Shown: positions 278 to 31,598 of the stretch, one piece after another | How positions within the stretch are numbered: position 1 is the stretch's first letter | Layout: the number at the start of each line of letters is the position of its first letter | DNA from: Minisyncoccota bacterium | GTDB lineage: Bacteria > Patescibacteriota > Minisyncoccia > Minisyncoccales > PWPS01 | DNA: 37,654 bases | Assembly (NCBI GenBank): GCA_021734685.1 | Contig: JAIPIL010000002.1 | Location: 1 to 37,654, forward strand | Reading direction: 5' to 3' | Notes under the pieces: generated by a model | Database searches by the model: none | Told to the model about the DNA's origin: nothing | The model's input: the letters and a program-made list of their open reading frames with translations, nothing else | Position numbers and translations under genes: made by a program

Positions 278-3200
278 ATGCAAAAAATAAAACACTTCGG
301 GAAGAAAAAAGTTCATTTTCCTATTCCTTATCTTTTTAATGTTCAGAAAGAAGCGTGGGAAGATTTTTGGGAAGAAAAACTAAAGACAATTTTTAGAGAA
401 GTTTCTCCTATTCGTGATTATAGCGGAAAACAGTGGGAGATATATTTTTTAGACTATAAACTAGGAAAACCAAAATACAAGAACGGAAAAGAAGCGAAAG
501 AAAACAATGACACCTATGAAGCTCCTTTAAAGATAGAAGTAGAACTTCGTAATCTGAAAACAAAGAAAAGCAAAAAACAAGAGATATTTTTGTGTGATTT
601 TCCGTTAATGACCGAGAAGAAAACATTTATTATTAACGGTGTAGAAAGAGTCGCTATCTCTCAACTTATTCGCTCCCCAGGAGCATTTTTTACGGCACAA
701 AACATAAAAGGAGAAAAGTGTTTTGGAGCAAAGATAGTTCCAAGTCGTGGAACTTGGCTTGAATTTCAAACAGAACCATCAGGATTTATAGGAGTAAAGA
801 TAGATCGTAGAAGAAAAGTTCCCGCAACTACTCTTCTTAAAGCGATCGGACTTCCTAATATGACTTATCCAGGATGGGATAAAGCAACAAACGAAGATGT
901 TTTATCTTTGTTTAAAGATGTTGATAAAGGGGAAGTTAAATTTATAGAAAAAACGCTAGAAAAAGACAGTTCTAAAAACAGAGAAACAGCACTGGTTGAG
1001 ATCTATCGCAGAATGCGCCCAGGAGACATCGTTACTCCCGAAACAGCAAGAGAACTTGTTGAAAATACATTTTTTAACTTTGGAAGATACGACATCTCAG
1101 AAGTTGGAAGATGGAAGATGTGGCAACGCTTACCAGAGTTAAAAGAAAAACTACCTAAAGGAAAAGAAAACAAAAAAATAGGAGTTGATGATCGCCTTCT
1201 TTATCCTGAAGATATTGTTGCAGTTTTAAGAGAAGTGGTCAGAATGAATAACGACAATCAAACTCACGAAGATGAGATAGATCATCTTGGAAACCGAAGA
1301 GTGAGACCATTTACAGAGATGCTTGAAAGCTCTCTTCGCTTAGGTCTTGCTAGGATGGAAAGAAACATTAAAGACAGAATTTCAACATCTGATACAGCTG
1401 GATTAAACCCAGCAAAACTAATCAACTCTCGTCCTTTTGCAACAGCAGTGCAAAGATTTTTCTCCTCTTCCCAGATATCACAGTTTATGGATTGTAATAA
1501 TCCTCTTTCTGAATCAGAACACAAAAGAAGACTAACATCCACCGGACCAGGGGGATTAAAAAGAGAAAGAGCAGGATTGGAAGCTCGTGATGTGCAGGCA
1601 TCTCACTACGGAAGAATATGTCCAATTCAAACTCCAGAAGGTCCAAATGTGGGACTGGTTAGTCACTTTGCGTTATATTCCAGAATGAATCACTACGGAT
1701 TTCTTGAAACACCTTACTTTAAAGTTGAGAAAACAAGAGTGACCTCAGAAGTTGTTTATCTTAACGCTCACGAAGAAGAAAAATATATTATTGCTCACGG
1801 AGGAGTTGAACTTAACGATAGTAAAAAAATAATTTCTGACAAAGTTGAAGGAAGATTAAAAGGAAAACCAGGAATTTTCAATAAAGAAGAGATACAACTA
1901 ATTGATGTTTCTGCGGAGCAGTTGATTTCTGTTGCAGCTTCAATGATTCCTTTTCTTCAAAACGACGATGCAAACAGAGCGTTGATGGGATCTAATATGC
2001 AACGCCAAGCAGTCCCTCTTCTTAATCCCCAAGCACCACTTGTCTCAACAGGAACAGAAGAGAAGATTGCTACTGACTCAGGACATGTAATTGTCAACGA
2101 GAAAGAAGGAGAAGTTGTTGAGATTGATGGAAGACACATCGTTGTTAAAAGTGGAAAAGAAAAGAAAGAATACTTTTTGGAAACATACTCTGAAACAAAC
2201 CAATATACTTGTTTTCACCAAAGACCAGTTGTAAAGAAAGGGGAAAAAGTTAAAAAAGGACAGTTTTTAACAGACGGAGGAGCAGTTGAAAACGGAAGAG
2301 TTGCTCTCGGACAGAATGTTCTAGTTGCCTTTATGCCGTGGAGAGGAAAAAACTTTGAAGATGCTGTTATCCTTTCAGAAAGACTTGTTAAAGATGATGT
2401 TTACACTTCTCTTCATATTGAAAGTTTTACTTGTGATGTAAGAGAAACAAAACTTGGGCCAGAAATAACAACAGCAGATATTCCTAATGTTTCTGAAGTT
2501 AAACTGAAAGATCTTGACGAAGATGGAATTATAAGAGTTGGGGCTGAGATAGGTCCTAACGATATTTTAGTTGGAAAGATTTCTCCAAAAGGAAAATCAG
2601 AACTAACAACCGAAGAAAGACTTTTAAAGGCAATTTTTGGAGAAAAAGCAAAAGATGTTAAAGACACCTCGCTCACTGTTGAGCACGGAAAAAAAGGAAG
2701 AGTTATCGCAGTTAAAGTTTTCACCAGAGATGAAGGACACAAGCTTGATCCAGGAGTAATTAAAAGAGTTGAAGTGAAAGTTGCTCAGATGAGAAAGATT
2801 AAAGCAGGAGATAAGCTTGCTGGAAGACACGGAAACAAGGGGGTTATATCACAAATACTTCCTCGTGAAGAGATGCCTTTTCTTGAAGACGGAACACCAG
2901 TTGATATTGTTTTAAATCCACTTTCTGTTGTTTCAAGAATGAACCTCGGACAGATACTTGAAACACATCTTGGATTAGCAGCAAAGAAAAACAACTACAT
3001 CGCAGTAACCCCATCTTTTTCAGGAGCAAGTGTTCAAGACATTGAAGACGAACTTGAAAAATCAGGACTTCCAAGAGATGGAAAGATGACTGTTTATGAT
3101 GGACAAACAGGAAAACCGTTCAAAAGAAGTGTTACTGTTGGTTACATCTATATGCTTAAGTTAGAGCATATGGTAGAAGATAAACTTCATATGCGTTCAA

Positions 3201-3493
3201 TTGGTCCTTACTCACTAATCACCCAACAACCACTCGGAGGAAAAGCTCAGTTTGGAGGACAGAGATTTGGAGAGATGGAAGTGTGGGCGTTAGAAGGATA
3301 CGGAGCAGCATACACACTGCAAGAGATGCTTACTATAAAATCAGATGATGTTCCAGGAAGAGCAGCCGCTTACGAATCAATCCTAAAAGGAGAACCAATC
3401 CAAACCCCAGGACTCCCAGCCTCCTTTGAACTTCTAGTAGCAGAAATAAAAGCAATGGGAATAGGAATAGAAGTAAAAAAAGACAAAAAATAA
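278..3493 (+). CDS. rpoB: DNA-directed RNA polymerase subunit beta
   Basis: 1071-aa ORF. Rif-region motif FFSSSQISQFMDCNNPLSESEHKRRLTSTGPGGL; GNRRVR; C-terminal GGQRFGEMEVWALEGYGAAYTLQEMLTIKSDD. Confidence 0.98.
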   Translation: MQKIKHFGKKKVHFPIPYLFNVQKEAWEDFWEEKLKTIFREVSPIRDYSGKQWEIYFLDYKLGKPKYKNGKEAKENNDTYEAPLKIEVELRNLKTKKSKKQEIFLCDFPLMTEKKTFIINGVERVAISQLIRSPGAFFTAQNIKGEKCFGAKIVPSRGTWLEFQTEPSGFIGVKIDRRRKVPATTLLKAIGLPNMTYPGWDKATNEDVLSLFKDVDKGEVKFIEKTLEKDSSKNRETALVEIYRRMRPGDIVTPETARELVENTFFNFGRYDISEVGRWKMWQRLPELKEKLPKGKENKKIGVDDRLLYPEDIVAVLREVVRMNNDNQTHEDEIDHLGNRRVRPFTEMLESSLRLGLARMERNIKDRISTSDTAGLNPAKLINSRPFATAVQRFFSSSQISQFMDCNNPLSESEHKRRLTSTGPGGLKRERAGLEARDVQASHYGRICPIQTPEGPNVGLVSHFALYSRMNHYGFLETPYFKVEKTRVTSEVVYLNAHEEEKYIIAHGGVELNDSKKIISDKVEGRLKGKPGIFNKEEIQLIDVSAEQLISVAASMIPFLQNDDANRALMGSNMQRQAVPLLNPQAPLVSTGTEEKIATDSGHVIVNEKEGEVVEIDGRHIVVKSGKEKKEYFLETYSETNQYTCFHQRPVVKKGEKVKKGQFLTDGGAVENGRVALGQNVLVAFMPWRGKNFEDAVILSERLVKDDVYTSLHIESFTCDVRETKLGPEITTADIPNVSEVKLKDLDEDGIIRVGAEIGPNDILVGKISPKGKSELTTEERLLKAIFGEKAKDVKDTSLTVEHGKKGRVIAVKVFTRDEGHKLDPGVIKRVEVKVAQMRKIKAGDKLAGRHGNKGVISQILPREEMPFLEDGTPVDIVLNPLSVVSRMNLGQILETHLGLAAKKNNYIAVTPSFSGASVQDIEDELEKSGLPRDGKMTVYDGQTGKPFKRSVTVGYIYMLKLEHMVEDKLHMRSIGPYSLITQQPLGGKAQFGGQRFGEMEVWALEGYGAAYTLQEMLTIKSDDVPGRAAAYESILKGEPIQTPGLPASFELLVAEIKAMGIGIEVKKDKK

Positions 3494-3635: not shown

Positions 3636-6600
3636 ATGCGTGTAGAAGATATTATCGCCATAAAAATAAAACTGGCATCTCCAGACGACATCTTGAAGTG
3701 GTCTTATGGAGAAGTTTTAGAGCCAGAAACAATTAACTACCGCAATCAGAAGCCAGAAAAAGATGGTCTTTTCTGCGAAAAGATATTTGGCCCTGAAAAA
3801 GATTACAAGTGTTACTGTGGAAAGTATCGCAAAGTTAGATTTAAAGGAACTGTTTGTGATCGTTGCGGAGTTGAAGTAACAAAAGCATCGGTCAGAAGAG
3901 AGAGAATGGGACACATTAAACTTGCCTGTCCTATTGCTCACATCTGGTTTTTGCGTGGAATTCCATCAAGAATGGGGCTTGTTTTGGATATTCCGATGAA
4001 AAGATTAGAAGAAGTGGTTTACTTTAGTTCTTACATAATCACTAAAGTTGATGAAGAAAGTAAAAAGAAAGCAGTTAAGGAAATAAACAAAGAGCACAAA
4101 AAGAGAACAAAAGAGATAAATGCTGAATTCAAAGGTGAGGCTCTTGAAGAAGAGTTAGGTAAACTGAAAGAACAGTTTGACAAAGTAAAAGAAGAACTGA
4201 AATCAATCAAGCTTTTACAGATTCATTCAGAAGCAGAGTATCACCGTCTTTCTATGAAGTATGGAGAGATGTTTGAAGCAAAGTCAGGAGCAGAGGCACT
4301 TCGTGAAGTGTTTGAAAAGATTGATGTAGATAGCATAATTGAAGAGCTGAAAAAAGAAAAAGAAAAAACCGCATCGGTTGGAAGAAGAAAAAAAGCAATC
4401 CAAAGACTGAAACTATTTATCAGAATGAAGAAGGCAGGAATTAAGCCCGAGTGGATGTTTGTTACCATTCTTCCCGTTCTTCCTCCTGAGCTAAGACCAA
4501 TAATTCAACTTGATGGGGGAAGGTACGCATCCTCCGATCTAAATGATCTCTACCGAAGAGTTATAAACAGAAACAACCGCTTAAAGTATCTTTTGGAGAT
4601 AGACGCTCCAGAAGTTATTGTTCGTAATGAAAAAAGAATGCTTCAAGAAGCAGTGGATGCTCTTCTTGATAATCAGATGAGAAAGGGGGTTGTCACTCAA
4701 GCATCAACCGGAGGAACTCGTCTCTTGAAGTCGTTAGCTGATATGTTGAAAGGAAAACAAGGAAGATTTCGTCAAAACCTCCTTGGAAAGAGAGTTGACT
4801 ACTCCGGCCGTTCAGTGATTGTAGTCGGACCTAACTTAGAACTGAATCAGTGTGGAATTCCAAAACAGATGGCTCTTGAGATATTTAAACCGTTTGTTAT
4901 ATCAAAAATATTAGAACAAAAACTTGCCTACAATGTCCGAGGAGCGGGAAGATTGATAGAAGAAGGAACCGACGAAGTGTGGGCGATACTTGAAGAAGTT
5001 GTGAAAGGAAAAACGGTTCTTCTGAATCGTGCTCCTACCCTTCACCGTCTTGGAATACAGGCGTTTAAGCCCGTGCTTGTTGAAGGATACGCTCTTAGAA
5101 TTCATCCGTTTGTTTGTGAGGCGTTTAACGCTGACTTTGATGGAGATCAGATGGCGGTTCACCTTCCTCTCTCTGACAGAGCTCAACAAGAAACAAAAGA
5201 ACTGATGCTCTCTTCAAAAAATTTACTAAAGCCAGCAACTGGGCGTCCGGTTGTTTCACCTTCCCAAGATATTGTTCTGGGTTGTTACTTCTTAACAATG
5301 GAAGAAGACGGAGTAAAAGGAGAAGGAAGCTACTTCTCATCTCCTTTTCAAATTGAGAGTGCTTTAGAGTTTGAAAAGATAGATCTTCACGCTAAAGTAA
5401 AAATAAGAATGGATGGAAAAGTGGTTGAAACAACTGCTGGAAGAGTTATCTTTAATAAAGAACTACCAGAAGGAGTACCTTATCAGAACAAAACAATGAA
5501 ATCTCGTGATCTGAAAGGATTAGTTGAGTTTATAATTAGAGAGTATAAAGACAAAGAGCCACACAAGCTTCTTGATAAAATAAAAGATCTTGGTTTTGAG
5601 TATGCAACAACATCTGGTATCTCTTGGGGAATGAGTGATATTGTTGTTCCAAAAGAAAAGAAAGGAATTTTAGAAAAAGCTCAACAAGAGAAAGAGCAAG
5701 TTGAAAAATACTTCAACAAAGGACTTTTCTCCGATGAAGAAAGAAAAGAAAAAGTAATTGAGATCTGGTCAAAAGCAAAAAAACAAGTTGAGGAAAGCAT
5801 TCCAGGTGCTCTTCCTATCGGAGGGTCAGTGTTTATAATCCTTGACTCAGGAGCAAGAGGATCTTGGTCTCAGCCAATCCAGATGTCTGGAATGAAAGGA
5901 TTGGTAGTTAATCCGTCAGGAGATATTATAGAACTTCCGATAAAAAGTTCTTATCACGAGGGATTTCATCCTCTTGAGTACTTTATTTCAACTCACGGAG
6001 CAAGAAAAGGAACTGCTGATACGGCACTTTGTACAGCGCAGGCGGGATACCTTACTCGTCGTCTTATTGATGTTGCTCACGAAGTTATTGTCACTGAAGA
6101 TGATTGTGGCGATACAGAAGGAATTGAAGTGCTTAGAAAAGATGCTGACGACATATATCAAAATATGTTCTTCAAAATTAGCGGAAGAACCGCCTTGGAA
6201 GATATAAAAATAAAAGGAAAAGTTGTTGTTAAGAAAGGAGAAGTTATTGATGCTGAGAAGGCAAAAATAATTGATGAGTCGGGAATTCCTTCTATTAAAA
6301 TAAGATCTGCTTTGAAGTGTAAAACAGTTCAAGGAATATGCTCTAAATGTTACGGATGGGATATGGGAACAAACGAGATGGCAGGAAAAGGTTTCGCCGC
6401 AGGAATTATTGGTGCTCAGGCAATCGGAGAACCGGGAACTCAGCTCACAATGAGAACCTTCCACACTGGAGGAGTTGCTGGCGGTGCTGACATAACCCTT
6501 GGACTTCCTCGTGTTCAAGAGATTTTTGAAAGAAGAGTGCCAAAAGGAAAAGCAGAAATTTCAGATGTTGACGGAAAAGTTGTTGATATAACCGAAAACA

Positions 6601-7383: not shown

Positions 7384-7644
7384 CGCTTCCAAAGGAAGCG
7401 CGCGAAACAACGCAAAACAAAAACGCAAAACAACGCAAAACTTCTTCCACCGTCATTGCGAGGAGTGAAACGACGTGGCAATCCCATCATCCTTGCAGAA
7501 ACCATGAGATTCTTCGCTCCGCTCAGAATGACGGCGGAGTGTCATTCCCACCACCCCTGTCATTCCCGCGAAAGCGGGAATCCAGTTTAGTGTAGTTTCG
7601 CGTCCCAGTTTCGCGTCGTTTCGCGCAAACCACAAAGTGGTTTG
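7384..7644 (+). repeat. Composite palindromic repeat mosaic
   Basis: Hairpin CGCTTCC-AAA-GGAAGCG 7384-7400; ACGCAAAACA-type array 7398-7441; PAL-B 7452-7532; half-site GTCATTCCC 7541-7549; HP-A 7559-7585; inverted (GTTTCGCG) array 7586-7626; hairpin CAAACCAC-AAA-GTGGTTTG 7626-7644. Confidence 0.9.
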
Positions 7645-12751: not shown

Positions 12752-12915
12752 GTCATTGCGAGGAGCGAAGCGACGTGGCAATCCCTTGAACCCCCCCGTC
12801 ATTCCCGCCCTCCCCCGTCATTCCCAACTTGATTGGGAATCCAGTTTTGAATTTTGAATTTAGTATTTTGAATTTATTTAGAATTTGGTGCTTAGAATTT
12901 AGAATTTATTTTTTT
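12752..12915 (+). repeat. Repeat mosaic between convergent genes
   Basis: Single PAL-B arm GTCATTGCGAGGAGCGAAGCGACGTGGCAATCCC 12752-12785; half-site 12798-12806; HP-A CAA/CTTGA/TTG variant 12817-12844; TTTGAAT/TTAGAAT array 12845-12915 overlapping the Elp3 stop. Confidence 0.9.
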
Positions 12916-14433
12916 TGTCATGTATGTCCCCCTCAACTCATACCCGTTACTCCTCCAGTAATCCCTCGTCCCAACCCCTGCTATCACTGCAATCTTATCT
13001 TTCTTAAAATCTTCTCTTGCAATCTCTTCCGCTTTTTTAATAAGCATCCTTCCCATTCCTTTGTGTTGTGGGGAGTATAGAAAATCTCCCTTATCAGATA
13101 TTGAAATTGAACTTCCGTAAGTTTTTATTTCTCTTATAATCGCAGAGTGATTATTATCACGAAGCCGAAGAAGAGCATAAATAGTGTCTTTCTCTTTATT
13201 TTCTAAAGAAAGAAAAACTTCTTCTCCTCCAGAGGCTTGATATCTTTCTTCATAAAGAAAAACTTCTTCTCCGTGCTTGTATCTCTCTCGCACCTCTCTA
13301 CAACGGATACATTTGCATCGCCAGCCCTCGTTATTTGCCTTTCTCGCGATAACTTCTCTCAGGTTTGATGTTTTACACCCACCGCCGATACTTTCCGCTG
13401 GAATGTCCCGAAAAAGGCGTTGGATCCGAACATAAGAAGGGATAATATCTTTCTTTATCTTTAATATTATCTCTACCAACTCATCTCCGCTAAACGAAAC
13501 ATATTGTTTGCTCTTCCAAAGAGAGTAAAGGGGAGTGCCTTCCATAACCAAACACGGATATATTTTTAAAAAATCAGGACGAAAATCAGAATCAGAAAAC
13601 ATCCTTTCAAAAGTTTCAACATCTTTTTCAGGAGAACTTTTTGGAAGATTAAGCATTACTTGATAACACACTTTAAACCCAGCTTCTTTTAAAAGTTTTG
13701 TTGCTTCTATCGTTTCTTTTACTCCGTGCCCTCGTTTTATGAAACTTAAAACATCATCAAACAGTGATTGAACTCCCAGCTCAACCATCGTAACTCCCAA
13801 AATTCGCAACTTCTTCACTTCTTCTTTGTCTATGTAATCAGGTCTTGTTTCAACCGAAAGACAAACAATGCGGTGCTTTGCCTTCTCATTCTTCTCTTGA
13901 GCCTCTTTCAGGGTTGCACTTTTCTCTCCATTACACGCCTCGTAGCAACTTTTAATAAACCAGATCTTGTAAATATCTGGATAAAAAGACCAAGTTCCAC
14001 CAACAATCCGAACTTCCAACTTTTCAGTAGTGTGCCCGGTTTCTTCCAACGCTTTCAATCTTGTCCTAATCTGTTTCACCGGATGAAAGTTGTTGTTAAA
14101 AGCACGCATCGCCGCTGGTTCGTTCTTCAAGTAACTCTTCGGCATTCCCTTTTCTTCAGGGCAGTAGATACATCTACCAGGGCAAGGAAACGGCTTTGTT
14201 AAAACCGAAACATTAACCACTCCTGATAACGATCTAACCGGACGAGTTCTCAAAACAGAAACAACTTTTTCATCTCTTTCTTTATTTTTGTGGTAGAATT
14301 TAAGAAGAGAAGAATTTGTTGGAGTAGAAACCTTGTATTTTTTGGAAGCAACTTTCTTTGCTTTCTCTAACTCTTCCCTCGTTTTTATCTCTCCTCGTTT
14401 TATCTTTTCAATTATCTCTTGATTTATATCCAT
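12892..14433 (-). CDS. elp3: Elp3-type radical SAM plus GNAT tRNA U34 carboxymethyl-modification enzyme
   Basis: Radical-SAM cluster motif PFPCPGRCIYCPEE, C-terminal GNAT QHKGMGRMLIKKAEEIA. The ORF extends to 14454, but MDINQEIIEKI (ATG complement of 14431-14433) is the likelier start. Confidence 0.88.
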   Translation of the reverse strand: MDINQEIIEKIKRGEIKTREELEKAKKVASKKYKVSTPTNSSLLKFYHKNKERDEKVVSVLRTRPVRSLSGVVNVSVLTKPFPCPGRCIYCPEEKGMPKSYLKNEPAAMRAFNNNFHPVKQIRTRLKALEETGHTTEKLEVRIVGGTWSFYPDIYKIWFIKSCYEACNGEKSATLKEAQEKNEKAKHRIVCLSVETRPDYIDKEEVKKLRILGVTMVELGVQSLFDDVLSFIKRGHGVKETIEATKLLKEAGFKVCYQVMLNLPKSSPEKDVETFERMFSDSDFRPDFLKIYPCLVMEGTPLYSLWKSKQYVSFSGDELVEIILKIKKDIIPSYVRIQRLFRDIPAESIGGGCKTSNLREVIARKANNEGWRCKCIRCREVRERYKHGEEVFLYEERYQASGGEEVFLSLENKEKDTIYALLRLRDNNHSAIIREIKTYGSSISISDKGDFLYSPQHKGMGRMLIKKAEEIAREDFKKDKIAVIAGVGTRDYWRSNGYELRGTYMTKKINSKF

Positions 14434-15066
14434 ATGAAAAATAAAGACGCACAAAACATAATGAGAAACCTGCAGAAAGATTACAACCTAACGGCAGAAT
14501 CTTTCTCTGCTACTCGTGACAGAATGTGGCCTGAGTTAAAATTCTTGTTTGATTATAGCAAAAAAAACGAAAAAGTTCTTGATCTAGGGTGCGGAAACGG
14601 AAGATTTTCAAAGTATCTTCAAGAAACAGATTACACCGGAGCTGATTTTTCAGAAAAAATGATAGAGCAAGCAAAAAAAAGATTTCCCGACAAAAAATTC
14701 GTAGTAGCAGATGTCCTCAACCTCCCCTTTGAAGACAACTATTTTGACAAGATATACTCCGTAGCAATGATCCACCAGATCCCATCCCACAAGTATCGCC
14801 TCGAAGCCCTCCTAGAAATAAAAAGAACCCTAAAACCCACCGGCCAAATCTTCCTAACCGCATGGAAAGCGGAGCGGGGTTGGGGCTCGCACCGCTTTGA
14901 GCGGGGGGAGGGGAAGGATGTTTTTCTGAAAAGAGAAAGATATTACTATCTTTTTGAAAAAGGAGAACTATCCGAACTAGCAGAAGAAGCAGGATTCAAA
15001 GTAAAAGAAGAAGGCTTGGCACAACAAGACAACAGGAGTAATATATACATAGTAGCAAGGAAATAG
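14434..15066 (+). CDS. Trm9-like class I SAM-dependent methyltransferase
   Basis: From memory of yeast Trm9: FSATRDRMWPELKFLF vs FSQTRYKPWPIVTEFL; LDLGCGNGRF; VVADVLNLPFEDNYFDKIYSVAMIHQIPSHKYRLEALLEIKRTLKPTGQIFLTAW vs LVADGLNLPHKNETFDFAISIAVVHHWSTRERRVEVI...; RYYYLFEKGEL vs RFYHLYREGEL. Alternative starts at 14419 and 14461. Confidence 0.8.
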   Translation: MKNKDAQNIMRNLQKDYNLTAESFSATRDRMWPELKFLFDYSKKNEKVLDLGCGNGRFSKYLQETDYTGADFSEKMIEQAKKRFPDKKFVVADVLNLPFEDNYFDKIYSVAMIHQIPSHKYRLEALLEIKRTLKPTGQIFLTAWKAERGWGSHRFERGEGKDVFLKRERYYYLFEKGELSELAEEAGFKVKEEGLAQQDNRSNIYIVARK

Positions 15067-15284
15067 GCATTTGACATTTGACATTTGACTGTCATTCTGA
15101 GCGAAGCGAAGAATCCCATCATCTTTGCAGTCCACGAGAGATTGCCACGGGCTAAAGCCCTCGCAATGACGATGGAGTGTCACTCCCACATTCTTTGTCA
15201 TTCCCGCGAAAGCGGGAATCCAGTTTTGAAAATTAAAAAATTGAAAATTCATTGAAAATTGTCAAATTGAAAATTGAAAATTTT
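15067..15284 (+). repeat. Composite repeat mosaic
   Basis: TTGACAT array 15067-15089; PAL-B with swapped arm types 15091-15170; degenerate half-site 15178-15186; HP-A 15197-15223; TTGAAAA array 15224-15284. Confidence 0.9.
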
Positions 15285-15381
15285 AGTCATTAATTCAAAA
15301 TTACTCAAACTTGCTTTATTGAAAAAGGAGTCAGGTACCTTTTTTAGAAAAATCTAGTATCATAATAATAACAAACATAAT

Positions 15382-15717
15382 ATGAAAAACTTAGGAATAT
15401 CTTTAATCTTTGTAGGAATCGCTATCATCTTATTAGTAATGTTTTTTGCTTTTCAGATCTTTGTCCAAGAGGAAGAGCCACCTATGGTATTCAAAGAGAG
15501 AGAAGTGATGATTAGCGATGTTTTTGGAGGAATACCAGTAGCAACTGAAAACGGCGAAGAGATGGAGATAGCAATTGGAGAAGGTGTAAAAATAGAAGAT
15601 GTTTTTCCAATAAACAAAACCCTAAACCTCTCCGCATTCTCAATCTTCGCTTTCATAATCTTCTCCGGAGCAGTAAAACTAACAAAAATAGGAATAGAAA
15701 TAAAGCGTGACAATTGA
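15382..15717 (+). CDS. Hypothetical small membrane protein (2 TM segments)
   Basis: 111 aa with N- and C-terminal hydrophobic helices. The stop lies in a TTGACAA array. No recognisable family. Confidence 0.5.
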   Translation: MKNLGISLIFVGIAIILLVMFFAFQIFVQEEEPPMVFKEREVMISDVFGGIPVATENGEEMEIAIGEGVKIEDVFPINKTLNLSAFSIFAFIIFSGAVKLTKIGIEIKRDN

Positions 15718-15823
15718 CAATTAACAATTGACCTTTGACACATCACTGTCATTCCCACCCATCTGTCATTCCCGCGAAAGCGGGAATCCAGTCAAAAGTC
15801 ACATGTCAACTGTCAAATGTCAC
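15707..15823 (+). repeat. Repeat mosaic with complementary TGAC/GTCA arms
   Basis: GTGACAATTGACAATTAACAATTGACCTTTGACAC 15707-15741; half-site 15748-15756; HP-A 15765-15791; inverted array GTCAAAAGTCACATGTCAACTGTCAAATGTCAC 15791-15823. Confidence 0.9.
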
Positions 15824-15831
15824 TCTGCTTA

Positions 15832-15860
15832 TTGACTTAATCCTTGTTTTAGTGTATATT
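15832..15860 (+). promoter_or_regulatory. Near-consensus sigma70 promoter driving the structured RNA and tmRNA
   Basis: TTGACT 15832-15837, 17-nt spacer, TATATT 15855-15860. The predicted TSS, about 15866-15868, coincides with the first bases of the closing helix. Confidence 0.55.
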
Positions 15861-15863
15861 GAA

Positions 15864-16116
15864 GGGCATAGGATACGAACCAAACAACCTTTAGAAACTG
15901 ATAAATGAGTTGATTTCAAGAAACGACGACCTAGCTACATTGAGGAGGAGTGACGCAGAAATCAGCCATTTATCAGCTTCCCGTAGGGCGGATCAATTTT
16001 ATCCATATTCTGCGTTATTCGTGAACAAGGTATTTGGCAATACCTTTTATCACTCACGCCTTGAATATGAATAAAATTGATTCCGCTAAAGATCATTTGG
16101 TTCGTGTCCTATGCCC
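15864..16116 (+). ncRNA. Candidate structured RNA or long structured tmRNA precursor leader (unidentified class)
   Basis: No credible ORF. Closing helix of 21 bp, 15864-15884 / 16096-16116 (one G-U), extended by CTTTAG 15889-15894 / CTAAAG 16086-16091. Arm A: 15898-15907/15967-15976 plus 15911-15917/15958-15964. Arm B: 15988-16010/16063-16086, containing CGTGA/TCACG and AAGGTATT-TGGC-AATACCTT (16027-16046). Confidence 0.45.
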
Positions 16117-16122
16117 TGACTT

Positions 16123-16471
16123 GGGGATGCACGTTTCGACAAAATCTCATAGGAAAATATTGCAAGCCGAGCACAATCTCGTAAATCTTGACTTTCACAA
16201 TAAGTGCCAACTTATTTAAAGAAGAACCTGCATTGGCATTAGCTTAAACGCAGGCGTTCCCTTCCTGATTTCTCATAGGGGAGAGTGAATGTCATAAATG
16301 AGGATATGAGATTAAAATTTGAACTTTGTTTTAATCTTGAAAAAAATAAAGTTCGGGAGTAGAAAAATTTTTTCCGATTTAATTTTCTTACTTCTTTAAC
16401 CCCCAATCGGAATAAGCTTGTAGATGTATTTTTCTTGACTTTTGGACGGGAGTTCAATCTCCCCATCTCCA
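16123..16471 (+). ncRNA. ssrA: tmRNA (transfer-messenger RNA)
   Basis: 5' GGGGATGCACGTTTCGAC...GCAAGCCGAG (E. coli has GGGGCUG..UUCGAC..GCAUGCCGAG). 3' GGACGGGAGTTCAATCTCCC-CATCTCC-A (E. coli has GGACGCGGGUUCAACUCCCGCCAGCUCCA). The acceptor GGGGATG/CATCTCC has a G3-U70 pair. Tag ORF 16206-16247 is GCC AAC ... GCT TAA, giving ANLFKEEPALALA. CCA not encoded. Confidence 0.88.
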
Positions 16472-16488
16472 CATAACTTATATAAAAT

Positions 16489-23445: not shown

Positions 23446-24102
23446 ATGTTCACTCACCATCGTACTCAAGCAATAATCCTAGATGACAAACAAGTTGGTG
23501 AAGCCGATCGGATTTTTACTTTTTACACCAAAGACTTTGGAAAGATAACTGCAACCGGAAGATCAATTAGAAAAGGGAAGTCAAAGCTGAAAATGAACAC
23601 TCAACTCTTCTCTTTCTCAGAGATAGAGTTTATCCAAGGAAGAAAAAACAACACCCTCACTGACGCTGTCCTTTTATCAAGTTTCAGAAAAACAAAAAAC
23701 AACTTAGCAAAACTCTCTCTCTTCTACCGCATCGCCGAAACCACCCTCTCTTTCATAAAAGAACAAGAGAAAGACGAGAAGATCTTTAACCTTCTTCTTG
23801 AAACCCTTCAAGAAGTGGAAGAAAAAAACCTCTCCAAAGAAAAGCTGAAAATAATGTGGTGTGCCTACACTTTTCGCCTACTTTATTTTTTAGGATATAA
23901 GTTATATACTAAGGAGTGTATGATCTGTGAAGAGAAGATAGAAGCAGAGTGCTACTTCAACCCCGAAGGAAAAGGAGTAGTCTGCCCAAAATGCTACCCA
24001 AAAAACCCAACCGGAATCTACATAGACGACATAAAAAAAGTATTCCTAACAAACCCAAACCGTTGCATAAAAATAACAAAAAGCTATATAAATAACATAT
24101 AG
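23446..24102 (+). CDS. recO: DNA repair protein RecO
   Basis: 218 aa. MFTHHRTQAIILDDKQVGEADRIFTFYTKDFGKITATGRSIRK (OB fold), C-terminal Cys cluster CMICEEK...VCPKC. Confidence 0.88.
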   Translation: MFTHHRTQAIILDDKQVGEADRIFTFYTKDFGKITATGRSIRKGKSKLKMNTQLFSFSEIEFIQGRKNNTLTDAVLLSSFRKTKNNLAKLSLFYRIAETTLSFIKEQEKDEKIFNLLLETLQEVEEKNLSKEKLKIMWCAYTFRLLYFLGYKLYTKECMICEEKIEAECYFNPEGKGVVCPKCYPKNPTGIYIDDIKKVFLTNPNRCIKITKSYINNI

Positions 24103-24423
24103 AAATAATTTTCAATTTGGCAATTTTCAATTTTCAATGAATGACCAAATGACCAAATGACCAAAACAACCATTTCTGTCATTCTGAAGGAGTGAAACGA
24201 CTGAAGAATCCCATCATTCTTGTAAAAACCATGAGATTCTTCACTACGCTACGCTTCGTTCAGAATGACGGTGGGGTGGCTCTCACGCCCCCTGTCATTC
24301 CCACCCCCACCTGTCATTCCCGCTCCCCCTCTTGTCATTCCCGCGAAAGCGGGAATCCAGTTTTGAAAATTAAAAAATTGAAAATTCATTGAAAATTGCC
24401 AAATTGAAAATTGAAAATTTTAG
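24103..24423 (+). repeat. 321-nt composite palindromic mosaic
   Basis: Inverted TTGAAAA array plus ATGACCAA x3 24103-24177; PAL-B (92 nt) 24178-24269; half-sites 24294 and 24313; HP-A 24334-24360; TTGAAAA array 24361-24423. Confidence 0.9.
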
Positions 24424-24440
24424 TCAGTGTTTTAATAATT

Positions 24441-24842
24441 ATGCCAAAAGTCAAAAGTCAAAAGTCAATTGTTAAATGTCAAAGTGGTTTCACCCTAATG
24501 GAACTAATGATCGTAATTGGGCTTCTGGTTATTTTCACCACCTTAACGATTCCTTACGGACTTAATTTTTATAACGCTCGGATGTTAGAAGAAGAAACCG
24601 CAAGCGTTGCAACTGTAATTGAGAGAGCAAGAGCTCACGCCGTATCAGGAAAAGAAGACAGCGATTGGGGAGTCCGATTTTTATACGCCCAAAATCAGTT
24701 CACAATATTCAAAGGAAGTTCTTGCGGATCAGGAACAATATACCAAACATTTAATCTAAACGACTCAACCGAACTAGAAAGCGAAATAAACTGCATAATC
24801 TTCGAAAGACACACAGGAATCCCAAAAATATATAATAACTAG
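24441..24842 (+). CDS. Type IV pilin-like protein (prepilin N-terminal cleavage/methylation domain)
   Basis: MPKVKSQKSIVKCQSG|FTLMELMIVIGLLVIF is a class III signal peptide. The track start 24411 (TTG) lies in the repeat array; ATG 24441 is preferred. The leader is encoded by a GTCAAAA array (24444-24487). Confidence 0.85.
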   Translation: MPKVKSQKSIVKCQSGFTLMELMIVIGLLVIFTTLTIPYGLNFYNARMLEEETASVATVIERARAHAVSGKEDSDWGVRFLYAQNQFTIFKGSSCGSGTIYQTFNLNDSTELESEINCIIFERHTGIPKIYNN

Positions 24843-29581: not shown

Positions 29582-29894
29582 TAAACCGTCACCATGAAAA
29601 CATACTACGTTTACATTATGGCAAGCAAAAGAAACGGCACCCTTTATATCGGAGTAACCAATGACTTGGAAAGAAGAATATACGAACACAAAAATAATAT
29701 TATAAAAGGATTCACAGAAAAATATAAAGTTCATTATCTTGTATATTACGAAGAAACAAGTGATATAAAAACAGCAATAGAAAGAGAAAAACAAATAAAA
29801 AAATGGAACAGAAAATGGAAGTTAGAATTAATTGAAAAAGAAAATAAAGAGTGGGTAGATTTAACTACTGGATTCCCGCTTTCGCGGGAATGAC
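29554..29894 (+). mobile_element. Candidate REPtron-like cassette: GIY-YIG gene between inverted HP-A hairpins
   Basis: Left HP-A (forward) 29554-29581, right HP-A (inverted, exact consensus) 29868-29894. 341 bp in total. Confidence 0.4.
29594..29893 (+). CDS. Small stand-alone GIY-YIG nuclease family protein (COG2827/UPF0213-like)
   Basis: 99 aa. YYVYIMASKRNGTLYIGVTNDLERRIYEH...KQIKKWNRKWK is the GIY...YIG...R...E core. The last 8 codons and the TGA lie in an inverted HP-A copy. Confidence 0.9.
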   Translation: MKTYYVYIMASKRNGTLYIGVTNDLERRIYEHKNNIIKGFTEKYKVHYLVYYEETSDIKTAIEREKQIKKWNRKWKLELIEKENKEWVDLTTGFPLSRE

Positions 29895-29931: not shown

Positions 29932-31383
29932 ATGTTCATCACCACCAGCATCGCATACACCAACGCCCCGCCTCACATCGGGTTTGCTTTGGAACTTCTT
30001 CAGGCCGATGTTATTGCAAGATACAACCGTCAACAAAATGTTGCCGTTTATTTTTTAACTGGAACCGATGAGCACGGCCACAAGATTGCAAAGAAAGCGG
30101 AAGAAGAAGGAAAAACCCCCCAACAGTTTGTTGACGAGATAACTGAAAAATACAAACTACTAACTGAAAAACTAAACATCTCCAACGATGACTTTATCAG
30201 AACTACCGATCAAGAAAAACACTGGAAAGGAGTTTACAAGATGTGGAACAAGTTAAAAGAAAGTGGAGACATCTACAAAAAAAAGTATGAAGGACTATAC
30301 TGCGTCGGATGCGAAGCGTTCAAAAGAGAAAAAGAACTGGTTGACGGAAAGTGCCCTGACCACAACAAAGAACCAGAGTTAGTAAAGGAAGAGAACTACT
30401 TCTTCCGTCTCTCAAAATACGAAACCGAGATAAAAAAACTAATCCAAGGTGACACCTTGGAAGTTGTTCCCGAGGGAAGAAAGAAAGAGATTCTTAACTT
30501 TTTAGAGGAAGGATTGGAAGACATAAGTGTTTCAAGAAGCACAAAAATTTTGAAGTGGGGGATTCCCGTTCCTGATGATGACTCACAAGTTCTTTATGTC
30601 TGGGTTGACGCTCTAACAAACTACATCTCTGCCCTCGGATACGGAGAAAACGAAGAAAAACTTGAAAAGTACTGGCCAGCCGACATCCACTTCATCGGAA
30701 AAGACATCTTAAGATTTCACGCGGTAATCTGGATCGGAATGCTTCTTTCTGCAGGATTAAAAATTCCAAAGAAGATACTATCACACGGACACATAACCTC
30801 ACAAGGAAAAAAGATGTCAAAAACACTGGGAAATGTAGTTGACCCTTTCACTATAATAGAAAAGTACGGAGTAGATCCCGTCCGTTACTACCTCTTATCA
30901 GAAATCCCAACATTATCTGATGGAGATTTTTCAGAAAGCCGTTTCATAGAAAAATACAACGCCGACCTAGCCGACGGAGTAGGAAACCTAACCTCCCGAA
31001 TAATCTCCCTAGCCAAAAAACACCCCCCCGTCATTCTGAACGAAGCGAAGCGTAGTGAAGAATCCCATTATCCTTGCAAAAACCATGAGCTTATAGAGGA
31101 GCAGTACCACCAACTAATGAAAGAACTCAAAATCAGCGAAGCCATTGAAAAAATCTGGGAAGTAATCCACCTAACCGACAAGTACATAGAAGAAGAAAAA
31201 CCATGGGAAAAAAAAGAAAACTCCAAACAAGTAGTTGAAACCCTCTTCTCAACAATAAACAAAATCGCAGAAATGCTAACCCCAATCCTCCCCGAAACAG
31301 CCCAAAAAATAAAAAAACAAACAGAAACAAAACAAAAAACCGTATTATTCCCAAAACAACCATCTGTCATTCTGAAGGAGTGA
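29932..31383 (+). CDS. metG: Methionine--tRNA ligase (short form)
   Basis: 483 aa. N-terminal HIGH-type PPHIGF, KMSKTLGN, Cys knuckle CVGCEAF...CPDH. Carries an in-frame repeat insertion and a repeat-derived C-terminus. Confidence 0.95.
   Translation: MFITTSIAYTNAPPHIGFALELLQADVIARYNRQQNVAVYFLTGTDEHGHKIAKKAEEEGKTPQQFVDEITEKYKLLTEKLNISNDDFIRTTDQEKHWKGVYKMWNKLKESGDIYKKKYEGLYCVGCEAFKREKELVDGKCPDHNKEPELVKEENYFFRLSKYETEIKKLIQGDTLEVVPEGRKKEILNFLEEGLEDISVSRSTKILKWGIPVPDDDSQVLYVWVDALTNYISALGYGENEEKLEKYWPADIHFIGKDILRFHAVIWIGMLLSAGLKIPKKILSHGHITSQGKKMSKTLGNVVDPFTIIEKYGVDPVRYYLLSEIPTLSDGDFSESRFIEKYNADLADGVGNLTSRIISLAKKHPPVILNEAKRSEESHYPCKNHELIEEQYHQLMKELKISEAIEKIWEVIHLTDKYIEEEKPWEKKENSKQVVETLFSTINKIAEMLTPILPETAQKIKKQTETKQKTVLFPKQPSVILKE
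31030..31089 (+). repeat. PAL-B left arm plus loop inserted in frame inside metG
   Basis: GTCATTCTGAACGAAGCGAAGCGTAGTGAAGAATCCCATTATCCTTGCAAAAACCATGAG is 60 nt, or 20 codons (VILNEAKRSEESHYPCKNHE). The arm is identical to 28058-28094. Confidence 0.85.
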
Positions 31384-31570
31384 AACGACTGAAGAATCCC
31401 ATCATCCTTGCAGAAACCATGAGATTCTTCGCTCCGCTCAGAATGACGGCGGAGTGTCACTCCCACCCCCCCCTGTCATTCCCGCGAAAGCGGGAATCCA
31501 GTTTGTAATTTTGGACATTGTAATTTGTAATTTATTTGGAATTTGTAATTTTGAATTTGTAATTTAAATT
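31366..31570 (+). repeat. Composite repeat mosaic
   Basis: PAL-B 31366-31447 (contains the metG stop at 31381-31383); degenerate half-site 31456-31464; HP-A 31475-31501; TTTGTAA array 31502-31570. Confidence 0.9.
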
Positions 31571-31598
31571 TTGACTTTTCAAAATTATTAAATATACT
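31571..31598 (+). promoter_or_regulatory. Candidate promoter of pilB
   Basis: TTGACT 31571-31576, 16-nt spacer, TATACT 31593-31598. It shares AAATATACTTAAAAT with the pilin promoter at 34893-34908. Confidence 0.45.

Follow-up and report, generated by a model that had tools for sequence, protein, structure and literature searches.

MITEs (miniature inverted-repeat transposable elements) undergo co-transcription with neighbouring genes, and the resulting RNA is cleaved by RNase III (PMC2229807). Here, we describe a 255 bp segment (positions 15863-16117) which is located between the promoter and the 5' end of ssrA, the gene for transfer-messenger RNA (tmRNA), on contig JAIPIL010000002.1 from a Minisyncoccota bacterium (assembly GCA_021734685.1). 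The whole analysed stretch of this contig (37,654 nt) is referred to as the window. A first-pass annotation, made from the window alone, had proposed that the segment is an unknown non-coding RNA or an unusually elaborate leader of the tmRNA precursor, with a MITE as the alternative at the DNA level. Based on sequence comparison, we consider it likely that the segment is a copy of a small, non-coding, non-autonomous MITE-like element which represents a family not previously described and which resides in Patescibacteria.

In its behaviour, the element is closest to Correia, ERIC, and RUP. The Correia elements (NEMIS) are MITEs from Neisseria with terminal inverted repeats of 24-26 bp and a TA duplication; they are often found beside promoters and transcribed together with adjacent genes, and the hairpin in their RNA serves RNase III as a substrate (PMC2229807, PMC2649163). 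The element upstream of ssrA is likewise small, non-coding, and promoter-adjacent, with terminal inverted repeats and a putative 2 bp duplication. Correia elements are 100-155 bp long, fold into one hairpin, and are present in hundreds of copies, whereas the element described here has a length of 255-400 bp, forms a three-way or four-way junction, and is known from two loci; there is no sequence similarity between them. ERIC elements are co-transcribed with flanking genes and exert an orientation-dependent effect on mRNA stability which involves the fold of the ERIC RNA (PMC2229807). With ERIC/IRU from enterobacteria and BOX from pneumococcus, the element shares the character of an imperfect palindrome in transcribed intergenic DNA, with size variants that result from internal modules. 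Unlike ERIC (127 bp, with terminal repeats of 7 bp) and BOX (without clear terminal repeats or duplications), it has long terminal repeats, and the strand data given below do not favour selection at the RNA level.

RUP, which is linked to IS630-Spn1, and other MITEs derived from IS630/Tc1-mariner elements are non-autonomous, show a TA duplication, and are mobilised in trans via their terminal repeats (PMC2229807). A 2 bp direct repeat (TA), a putative duplication, also flanks the copy from a third species (L035, see below), whereas the window copy is flanked by GA rather than TA, and no IS630-type gene was found. The terminal repeats (AGGG...) are, to our knowledge, unlike known IS630 ends.

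Mobile repeats in stable-RNA transcription units have precedents. According to Ogata et al. (2002), as cited in PMC2229807, Rickettsia palindromic elements (RPE) lie inside the genes for tmRNA and RNase P RNA. As far as that citation describes them, RPE resemble the element in being palindromic mobile repeats which are tolerated within the ssrA transcription unit; they differ in being inside the mature RNA, while the element is located within the 5' leader, downstream of the -10 box and upstream of the first nucleotide of the tmRNA (G1), so that the mature tmRNA is unchanged. The intervening sequences (IVS) of 23S rRNA are lineage-sporadic, have a long closed helix, and are excised harmlessly by RNase III. 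The element is likewise a sporadic insertion with a long closed helix in a stable-RNA transcription unit, but it lies in the leader and not inside a mature RNA as IVS do. We know of no case in which IVS occupy unrelated loci.

Filled and empty sites upstream of ssrA

The ssrA loci of relatives were retrieved via their IF-3 and L35 proteins, and the tmRNA genes were then located. In six related lineages (L003/L004/L016, L005/L006, L008, L009, L010/L011, and L012-14), a conserved promoter precedes tmRNA G1 at a distance of 10-17 nt, without any intervening segment. Among these relatives, the closest one, with a tmRNA 93% identical to that of the window, reads TATATT-GTTAGAAATT-GGGG, compared to TATATT-GA-(255 bp)-GA-CTT-GGGG in the window. 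The comparison indicates that the promoter at 15832-15860 is the ancestral ssrA promoter and that the structured segment was inserted 2 nt past its -10 box.

This promoter (plus strand), which had already been recognised in the first-pass annotation, belongs to the host and not to the element. It consists of a -35 box (TTGACT, 15832-15837), a 17 nt spacer, and a -10 box (TATATT, 15855-15860) and scores 10 of 12 consensus matches in a scan for sigma-70-type sites. The -35 box TTGAC(T/C), the 17 nt spacer, and the -10 region GTGTATAYT are kept upstream of ssrA in eight related sequences (L003/L016, L005/6, L008, L009, L010/11, L012-14, L017, and L018), in each case 10-17 nt upstream of tmRNA G1. 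The tmRNA gene (16123-16474, plus strand) matches Rfam RF00023 with 116.5 bits over the full length of the model (positions 1-374 of 374), which confirms the position of G1 at 16123. This tmRNA is overlooked by ARAGORN.

Filled and empty alleles also exist within one species. A sister species of the window organism, here called species B, is represented in several Joint Genome Institute (JGI) samples, and its flanking genes are 85-92% identical to those of the window. At ssrA, two of its sequences (L017 and L018) are empty, although their downstream regions are 99.3-99.9% identical to those of carriers of the element (99.3-99.6% for L020 and L023). The empty allele of L018 has the ancestral-type leader GTTAGGACTT. 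That of L017 (4060-4077) has the leader AAGGGCTAAAC, which is not of the GTTAG type and retains the first 5-6 nt of the left junction of the element; its sequence has the appearance of a footprint left behind when the element was deleted imprecisely. The ssrA site of a third species (species C, GCA_034661095.1) is also empty. Conservation of the segment upstream of ssrA in relatives had been suggested as a check; nothing is conserved between promoter and ssrA. Taken at the sequence level, the segment is thus an insertion relative to the ancestral order of promoter and gene, and not a conserved leader.

The 5' flank of ssrA is highly variable among the relatives. In L009, an insertion sequence of the rve family (107-1147) is found about 100 nt upstream. 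In L012/L013, a DUF6364 gene and an adjacent ParE/YafQ-like toxin gene (2057-2584), possibly a toxin-antitoxin pair, are located between smpB and ssrA. Species B (L015/L017/L018) has at least three different alleles upstream of ssrA.

The element has terminal inverted repeats of 31-32 bp which start with AGGGCATAGGAYACGAACCAAA and enclose two long hairpin modules. The left repeat (15863-15894, core 15864-15884) has 32 nt and is 88% complementary to the right repeat (16086-16117, core 16096-16116), the latter being the same as the ssrA-proximal repeat of L015, L020, and L023 except at position 16094. The 21 bp helix between the two cores, which had been noted before, is present with 1 mismatch, but the inverted repeat in fact extends to 32 nt. 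The 21 bp terminal sequence has two matches in the window (the pair itself) compared to 0 expected. Arm 1 (about 15894-15980) is a long hairpin with the purine-rich conserved apex CTACATTGAGGAGGAG. Arm 2 (15988-16086) is a long interrupted hairpin (19 nt inverted repeat, 95%) which ends in the nested 8 bp hairpin AAGGTATT-TGGC-AATACCTT. Both arms and the nested hairpin are thus present as initially described.

Either single strand of the element is predicted to fold into a closed three-way junction. Compared to shuffled sequences, the plus strand (-106.9 kcal/mol, z -12.7) and, even more so, the minus strand (-117.2 kcal/mol, z -14.1) are highly structured, which bears out the original impression. 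In the predicted fold, 89 of the 91 pairs are Watson-Crick pairs. This pattern is that of DNA palindromy and not a strand-specific RNA signature. As had been stated earlier, there is no credible open reading frame (ORF): none exceeds 61 aa, and the longest internal ORF (54 aa) has no homologue among 5.8 billion proteins. The absence of the repeat modules of the window from the segment also holds true, as no similarity was detected between the element and any other part of the 37.6 kb window, including its mosaic repeats. In the window copy, 12 nt (GAAAGGTAGCGT) which all other full-length copies have are missing; they make up the 5' half of a conserved, small apical hairpin. The inner repeat of this copy has three C.A/A.C mismatches. 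On account of these two defects, the copy looks degenerate and may be an immobile relic.

For the analysis of the junctions, the ends of the element were set such that the terminal A/T pair is included (255 bp). At the window copy, the junctions read [GA]AGGG...CCCT[GA]. The direct repeats GA (15861-15862 and 16118-16119) form a putative target-site duplication, which corrects the earlier statement that no such duplication is visible. The right-hand GA-CTT-GGGG matches the empty site GTTAG-GA-CTT-GGGG of L018, with GTTAG missing in the window. At the second locus described below, the species C copy (L035) reads [TA]AGGG...CCCT[TA], its flanks being colinear with the empty site ...tatta[TA]gagtaa..., while the species B copy (L026) has [TA]...[TG] and a 5 nt microdeletion. 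The two clean 2 bp duplications (window and L035) are suggestive, but no proof, of a transposase with a 2 bp stagger. The element would then move in trans by means of a transposase which recognises the inverted repeats and makes a 2 bp staggered cut. IS630/Tc1-type enzymes classically target TA (PMC2229807). By analogy, a TA-targeting enzyme of this type might be responsible, but no such gene was found; insertion into TA with TA duplication is seen on both sides in L035, on one side only in L026, and is replaced by GA/GA at ssrA in the window.

At ssrA, the element is probably transcribed as a self-contained 5' leader which is discarded upon tmRNA maturation. Because it landed 2 nt after the -10 box, which ends at 15860, transcription would start at about 15866-15868, within the left terminal repeat. 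As it sits between the -10 box and tmRNA G1, the entire element would be made as a self-folding 5' leader of about 255 nt. In the predicted fold of the pre-tmRNA (15866-16477), the insert is an independent closed domain, which is connected by a 7 nt linker to the tmRNA with its acceptor stem intact. A promoter and terminator scan revealed neither a terminator-like site nor an internal outward promoter for ssrA inside the insert. The 5' end of tmRNA is generated by RNase P, and a cut at 16122/16123 would remove the leader and yield mature tmRNA. RNase III, which is shown to act on Correia RNA (PMC2229807), could also cut the long closing helix (19-21 bp). The insertion is expected to be tolerated and near-neutral, without a function for tmRNA. 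The first-pass view of a leader is thus retained insofar as the insert is probably within the transcribed 5' leader of the pre-tmRNA, but it is not a feature dedicated to tmRNA; its leader status is a by-product of the landing place.

Copies at a second locus and conservation of the fold

At least nine assemblies and samples independently yielded homologous copies, at two loci and with consistent junctions. Those adjacent to ssrA in species B are a full-length copy (L015) and the right-hand 44-76 nt of the element in L020 and L023, the contigs of which break inside the element. On its left, the L015 copy is flanked by sequence without relation to the ssrA promoter, and the gene adjoining it there led to the second locus, the spacer between a gene for a phosphonate-binding protein and a FISUMP (Fib_succ_major) gene. 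In species B, this spacer has 392 nt and carries a 267 bp copy in L026 (a 105 kb contig), L028, L031, and L033, while it has 128 nt and is empty in L025, L029, and L032. In species C (L035), a 400 bp derivative is found at the same position and in the same orientation; its interior is partly duplicated, resulting in three long arms and a fourth, short hairpin. Thus, both loci have filled and empty alleles within species B. A search for copies elsewhere had been named as a way to recognise a MITE, and the copies at this unrelated locus, which are present or absent depending on the assembly, support that alternative.

Sequence L015 (contig Ga0484710_000763, with 3792-4060 corresponding to L027) is a hybrid, with a window-type repeat on its ssrA side, whereas everything else in the element and the other flank correspond to the second locus. 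Either two copies have recombined, or the contig is a repeat-induced chimera, and such joining of the ssrA and second-locus copies is the expected behaviour of a repeat. The contigs L020, L023, and L030 all end inside the element.

The copies appear to be younger than the genomes which carry them, because the interior of the element differs far less than the third-codon positions of flanking genes. Over the interior of about 190 nt, the window copy and the species B copies differ by 4 substitutions and one 12 nt indel (98% conserved), whereas the third-codon positions of infC, rplT, smpB, and argS are 78-83% identical between window and species B, and the tmRNA is 91.7% identical. These identities suggest that the element copies share a more recent ancestor than the host genomes, as expected for a mobile element, the alternative being strong constraint.

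While sequences change, pairing is retained. The terminal repeats fall into three types (I, GGGCATAGGAYACG; II, GGGTGTGGGATYCG; III, GGGTRCGAGATTCG). Between types I and II, both arms change together, with 3 compensatory pairs (positions 4, 5, and 7), and the terminal repeat of L026 (31 nt) has one mismatch. In arm 2, the stem is identical in the species B copies while the loop differs (TGGC vs. AGTC). In species C, where arm 1 is duplicated, the stem sequence of this arm is very different and still pairs. In an alignment of four arm 1 versions, there are 7 compensatory pairs including transversions, 97.6% of the cells are paired, and none of 500 shuffles was as good. A purine-rich apex of about 45 nt (CGACGACGAAAGGTAG..CTACATTGAGGAGGAG) is constant in every version of arm 1, even over a fully changed stem. 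The apex motif CGACGACGAAAGGTAGYG..TARCTACATTGAGGAGGAG is found in the window (15935-15950), in L026 (4833-4871), and twice in L035 (2679-2716 and 2812-2849). It includes a 5 bp hairpin with one compensatory change, and the window copy is without its first 12 nt. The structural conservation could reflect a requirement of folding for mobility.

Terminal repeats of types II and III contain GGTTCGAATCCCAC / GGTTCGAATCTCG (L026, 4666-4697 and 4902-4933; L035, 2509-2541 and 2879-2910), with a weaker counterpart in the window (16096-16116). This is a canonical tRNA T-arm sequence followed by an acceptor-like run, while no cloverleaf is detectable. In view of this resemblance, the 3' end of a tRNA gene may be the origin of the terminal repeats. 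That the element is itself a tRNA-like gene was considered and rejected: a T-arm-like GGTTCGAATCC is present, but there is no cloverleaf and no match by ARAGORN or Rfam.

Strand tests were performed for three versions of the element. For version A (window), there are 2 G.U pairs on the tmRNA-sense strand and 7 on the complement, with folding energies of -109.6 and -119.4 kcal/mol, respectively. The corresponding values are 2 vs. 3 G.U pairs and -131.4 vs. -130.9 kcal/mol for version B (L026), and 3 vs. 9 G.U pairs and -154.1 vs. -161.1 kcal/mol for version C (L035). The tmRNA-sense strand also has more A.C mismatches than the complement, and the bias in mismatches, with about 5 vs. 10 independent events, is not significant. 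There is no support for an RNA-level signal on the tmRNA strand.

Both insertion sites are 0-2 nt past a -10-like hexamer, and in both the AGGG end (that of arm 1) is proximal to the hexamer. The hexamers are TATATT at ssrA (window 15855-15862) and, at the second locus, the -10 part of TTGCAT-17-TATTAT, which faces the gene for the phosphonate-binding protein (L025, 4934-4939, minus strand). The promoter at the second locus is a consensus match only, in AT-rich DNA where 3 such sites were found compared to 1.5 expected. The placement could reflect a preference for TA-rich targets or something more specific; with two sites, one of which has a merely consensus-level promoter, it is a lead and not a result.

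Assessment of the MITE-like reading and its alternatives

The properties of the element agree with those of MITEs. Its length of 255 bp is within the usual limit (roughly below 600 bp), it has terminal inverted repeats and no coding gene, and it is found at unrelated sites with filled/empty polymorphism. As a putative target-site duplication, GA/GA is seen in the window and TA/TA in L035; L026 has TA/TG with the 5 nt deletion. Several observations weigh against this assignment. The GA/GA repeat has a length of only 2 bp, and about 5 nt (GTTAG) of the nearest empty ssrA sites are missing in the window. No more than two insertion loci are documented, with one copy in the 37.6 kb window and no further copy in 246 kb of compared sequence. 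No transposase gene is present in the window, and no autonomous partner was found. Moreover, stems and repeats are kept paired by compensatory changes and the apex is conserved, which is not the case in ordinary decaying MITEs and hints at a structural constraint on single-stranded DNA (ssDNA) or RNA. Together with the location of both sites just downstream of a -10 box, this retained pairing is unusual for a MITE.

Exact-pattern scans did not reveal copies in GTDB representatives, JGI metagenome contigs, IMG/VR, phages, or plasmids, which also counts against the assignment. In the GTDB representative genomes, an exact scan with the terminal repeat gave one chance coding match in a metagenome-assembled genome (MAG) from Bacillota. 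The same scan gave none in the JGI metagenome contigs, a collection evidently without relevant samples, for which a zero is weak evidence. It carries little weight because a scan of the same contigs with the ssrA-promoter pattern TTGACTTAATNNNNNTTTTRGTGTATATT was also negative, although the JGI sequences L005 and L006 contain this exact pattern and were thus missed. Exact scans of IMG/VR gave none, whether for the terminal repeat, its conserved core, either of the two arms, the nested hairpin, or the apex motif; BLASTN against phage and plasmid collections gave none either. The 54 aa internal ORF, used as a proxy for miscalled genes in other copies, retrieved nothing. When versions A, B, and C were searched against Rfam 15 at gathering and permissive thresholds (covering, among others, RNase P, SRP, 6S, ribozymes, introns, and riboswitches), only chance miRNA-type hairpins with 13-24 bits were obtained, compared to gathering thresholds of 66-195. 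This is in line with the earlier failure to match the segment to a known RNA family. Several other identities were rejected. A group I intron or self-cleaving ribozyme gives no Rfam signal. For a retron msr/msd, there is no reverse transcriptase nearby, and the element occurs at two loci. An IS110 bridge-RNA-like element is at odds with the lack of relation between the two target sites and with the absence of a recombinase. A small-peptide gene starting with GTG at 15950 is not conserved in the diverged arm of L035.

The retained pairing and the position after -10-like hexamers are the background for two explanations in which RNA may play a role. One of them is a structure-constrained variant of the mobile element, its fold being under selection and its target being the stretch between -10 box and transcription start in a fixed orientation, so that each copy would be born as a self-contained 5' leader RNA, with folded RNA or ssDNA in the life cycle; we consider this unlikely. 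That the element is a mobile or horizontally exchanged structured RNA gene, which inserts just past -10 boxes and the RNA of which is released at ssrA by RNase P and is either functional itself or needed for spread, we consider quite unlikely. It would account for pairing that is upheld by compensation at 3 pairs of the terminal helix and at 7 pairs of arm 1 (0 of 500 shuffles as good), for the conserved apex of about 45 nt, for both sites being 0-2 nt after a hexamer with the same end proximal, and for an interior conserved to 98% compared to about 80% at third-codon positions. Recent transposition explains this high identity equally well, and the second-locus promoter, at 3 sites vs. 1.5 expected, is only a consensus match in AT-rich DNA. 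Furthermore, in all three versions G.U pairs are fewer and A.C mismatches more numerous on the tmRNA-sense strand, which is not the better-folding one in two of them, half of the otherwise conserved small apical hairpin is missing from the window copy, no Rfam family matches, and empty alleles within one species demonstrate that the element is dispensable. The dedicated leader that had been proposed at first, a lineage-specific regulatory or processing extension of the tmRNA precursor which evolved for ssrA, is extremely unlikely. The location between promoter and G1, the coincidence of the predicted start with the closing helix, and the presence at ssrA in two species were in its favour. The segment has neither a conserved position at ssrA, being absent there in six related lineages and in two conspecific alleles, nor is it confined to ssrA, as the same element occurs at an unrelated locus. 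In addition, the spacing to G1 differs between the two carriers (6 vs. 18 nt from the end of the 21 bp helix, corresponding to 5 vs. 17 nt from the CCCT end). The copies at the second locus and the empty ssrA alleles refute this dedicated leader in practice, and the first-pass reading as an unknown RNA gene is not supported.

The fold might also matter at the DNA level, with the element being moved as folded ssDNA by a recombinase or HUH-type enzyme, like the attC sites of integrons or the palindrome-associated transposable elements (PATEs) derived from IS200/IS605. Such a mechanism would fit the closure of either strand into a fully paired multi-way junction, the preservation of structure while stem sequences change, and the small deletions instead of clean duplications at two of the three junctions. 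A weak excess of G.T-compatible mismatches on one strand also points in this direction, but this bias (about 5 vs. 10 independent events) is not significant. PATEs lack terminal inverted repeats as well as a duplication, and their left and right ends carry distinct subterminal hairpins, while the element has long terminal inverted repeats and a clean TA/TA in L035. These are a signature of DDE transposition, which IS200/IS605 elements lack, and there is no gene for a HUH enzyme or integron integrase nearby in the window. We therefore regard movement as ssDNA as very unlikely. Palindromes can also arise in amplified or mis-assembled metagenomic DNA, and the contigs which break inside the element as well as the hybrid L015 might be seen as signs of an assembly or amplification artefact, that is, of a chimeric palindrome in one contig. 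Given the independent recovery from at least nine assemblies or samples at two loci with consistent junctions, the probability of such an artefact is close to negligible. The MITE-like element thus remains our preferred explanation, with a residual novelty which consists of the closed multi-way-junction architecture, the structure-preserving evolution, and the insertion at both sites close behind a -10-like hexamer, towards which the same end of the element points.

Genomic setting and implications

The window is chromosomal DNA from Patescibacteria (Candidate Phyla Radiation, CPR); its IF-3 is 97% identical to that from a MAG labelled "Patescibacteria group bacterium", while an exact look-up of the window IF-3 and of the upstream 111 aa protein gave no record. 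The neighbours are housekeeping genes (rpoB/C, ruvA, argS, ileS, smpB, infC-rpmI-rplT), together with genes for type IV pili. Within the rpoB ORF (278-3493), ARAGORN calls a tRNA-Ser(gct) at 1389-1480 (minus strand), which is without Rfam support and probably a false positive. Nearly all intergenic regions of the window are a dense mosaic of repeat modules (e.g., 7400-7590, 15090-15320, 15700-15830, 24100-24450, and 31290-31590). The modules, which are unrelated to the 255 bp element, include runs of the GTCATTCCCGCGAAAGCGGGAATCCAG, TGTCATTCTGAGCGAAGCGAAGAATCCC, GTCATTCCCAGCTTGACTGGGAATCC, and TTGAAAATTG type in many combinations and in both orientations. Two further genes are unlinked to the element: an Elp3-like radical-SAM/acetyltransferase gene (12892-14454, minus strand), which is kept in relatives (PF23613, PF04055, and PF16199 in L003), and a gene for a stand-alone GIY-YIG nuclease-domain protein of 99 aa (29594-29893, plus strand).

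For annotation, the analysis removes a false lead, namely a strongly structured segment beside tmRNA which resembles a new RNA gene. It is a worked example of how the comparison of filled and empty sites settles such cases. It also brings to light a MITE-like family, apparently undescribed so far, in Patescibacteria (CPR), the mobile elements of which are little studied. The short stretch that separates the -10 box from the mature 5' end of a stable RNA can serve as a safe harbour, since RNase P would trim off anything inserted there. If the element were indeed a structure-constrained one which is born as a 5' leader with each insertion, a folded RNA or ssDNA would be part of its life cycle.

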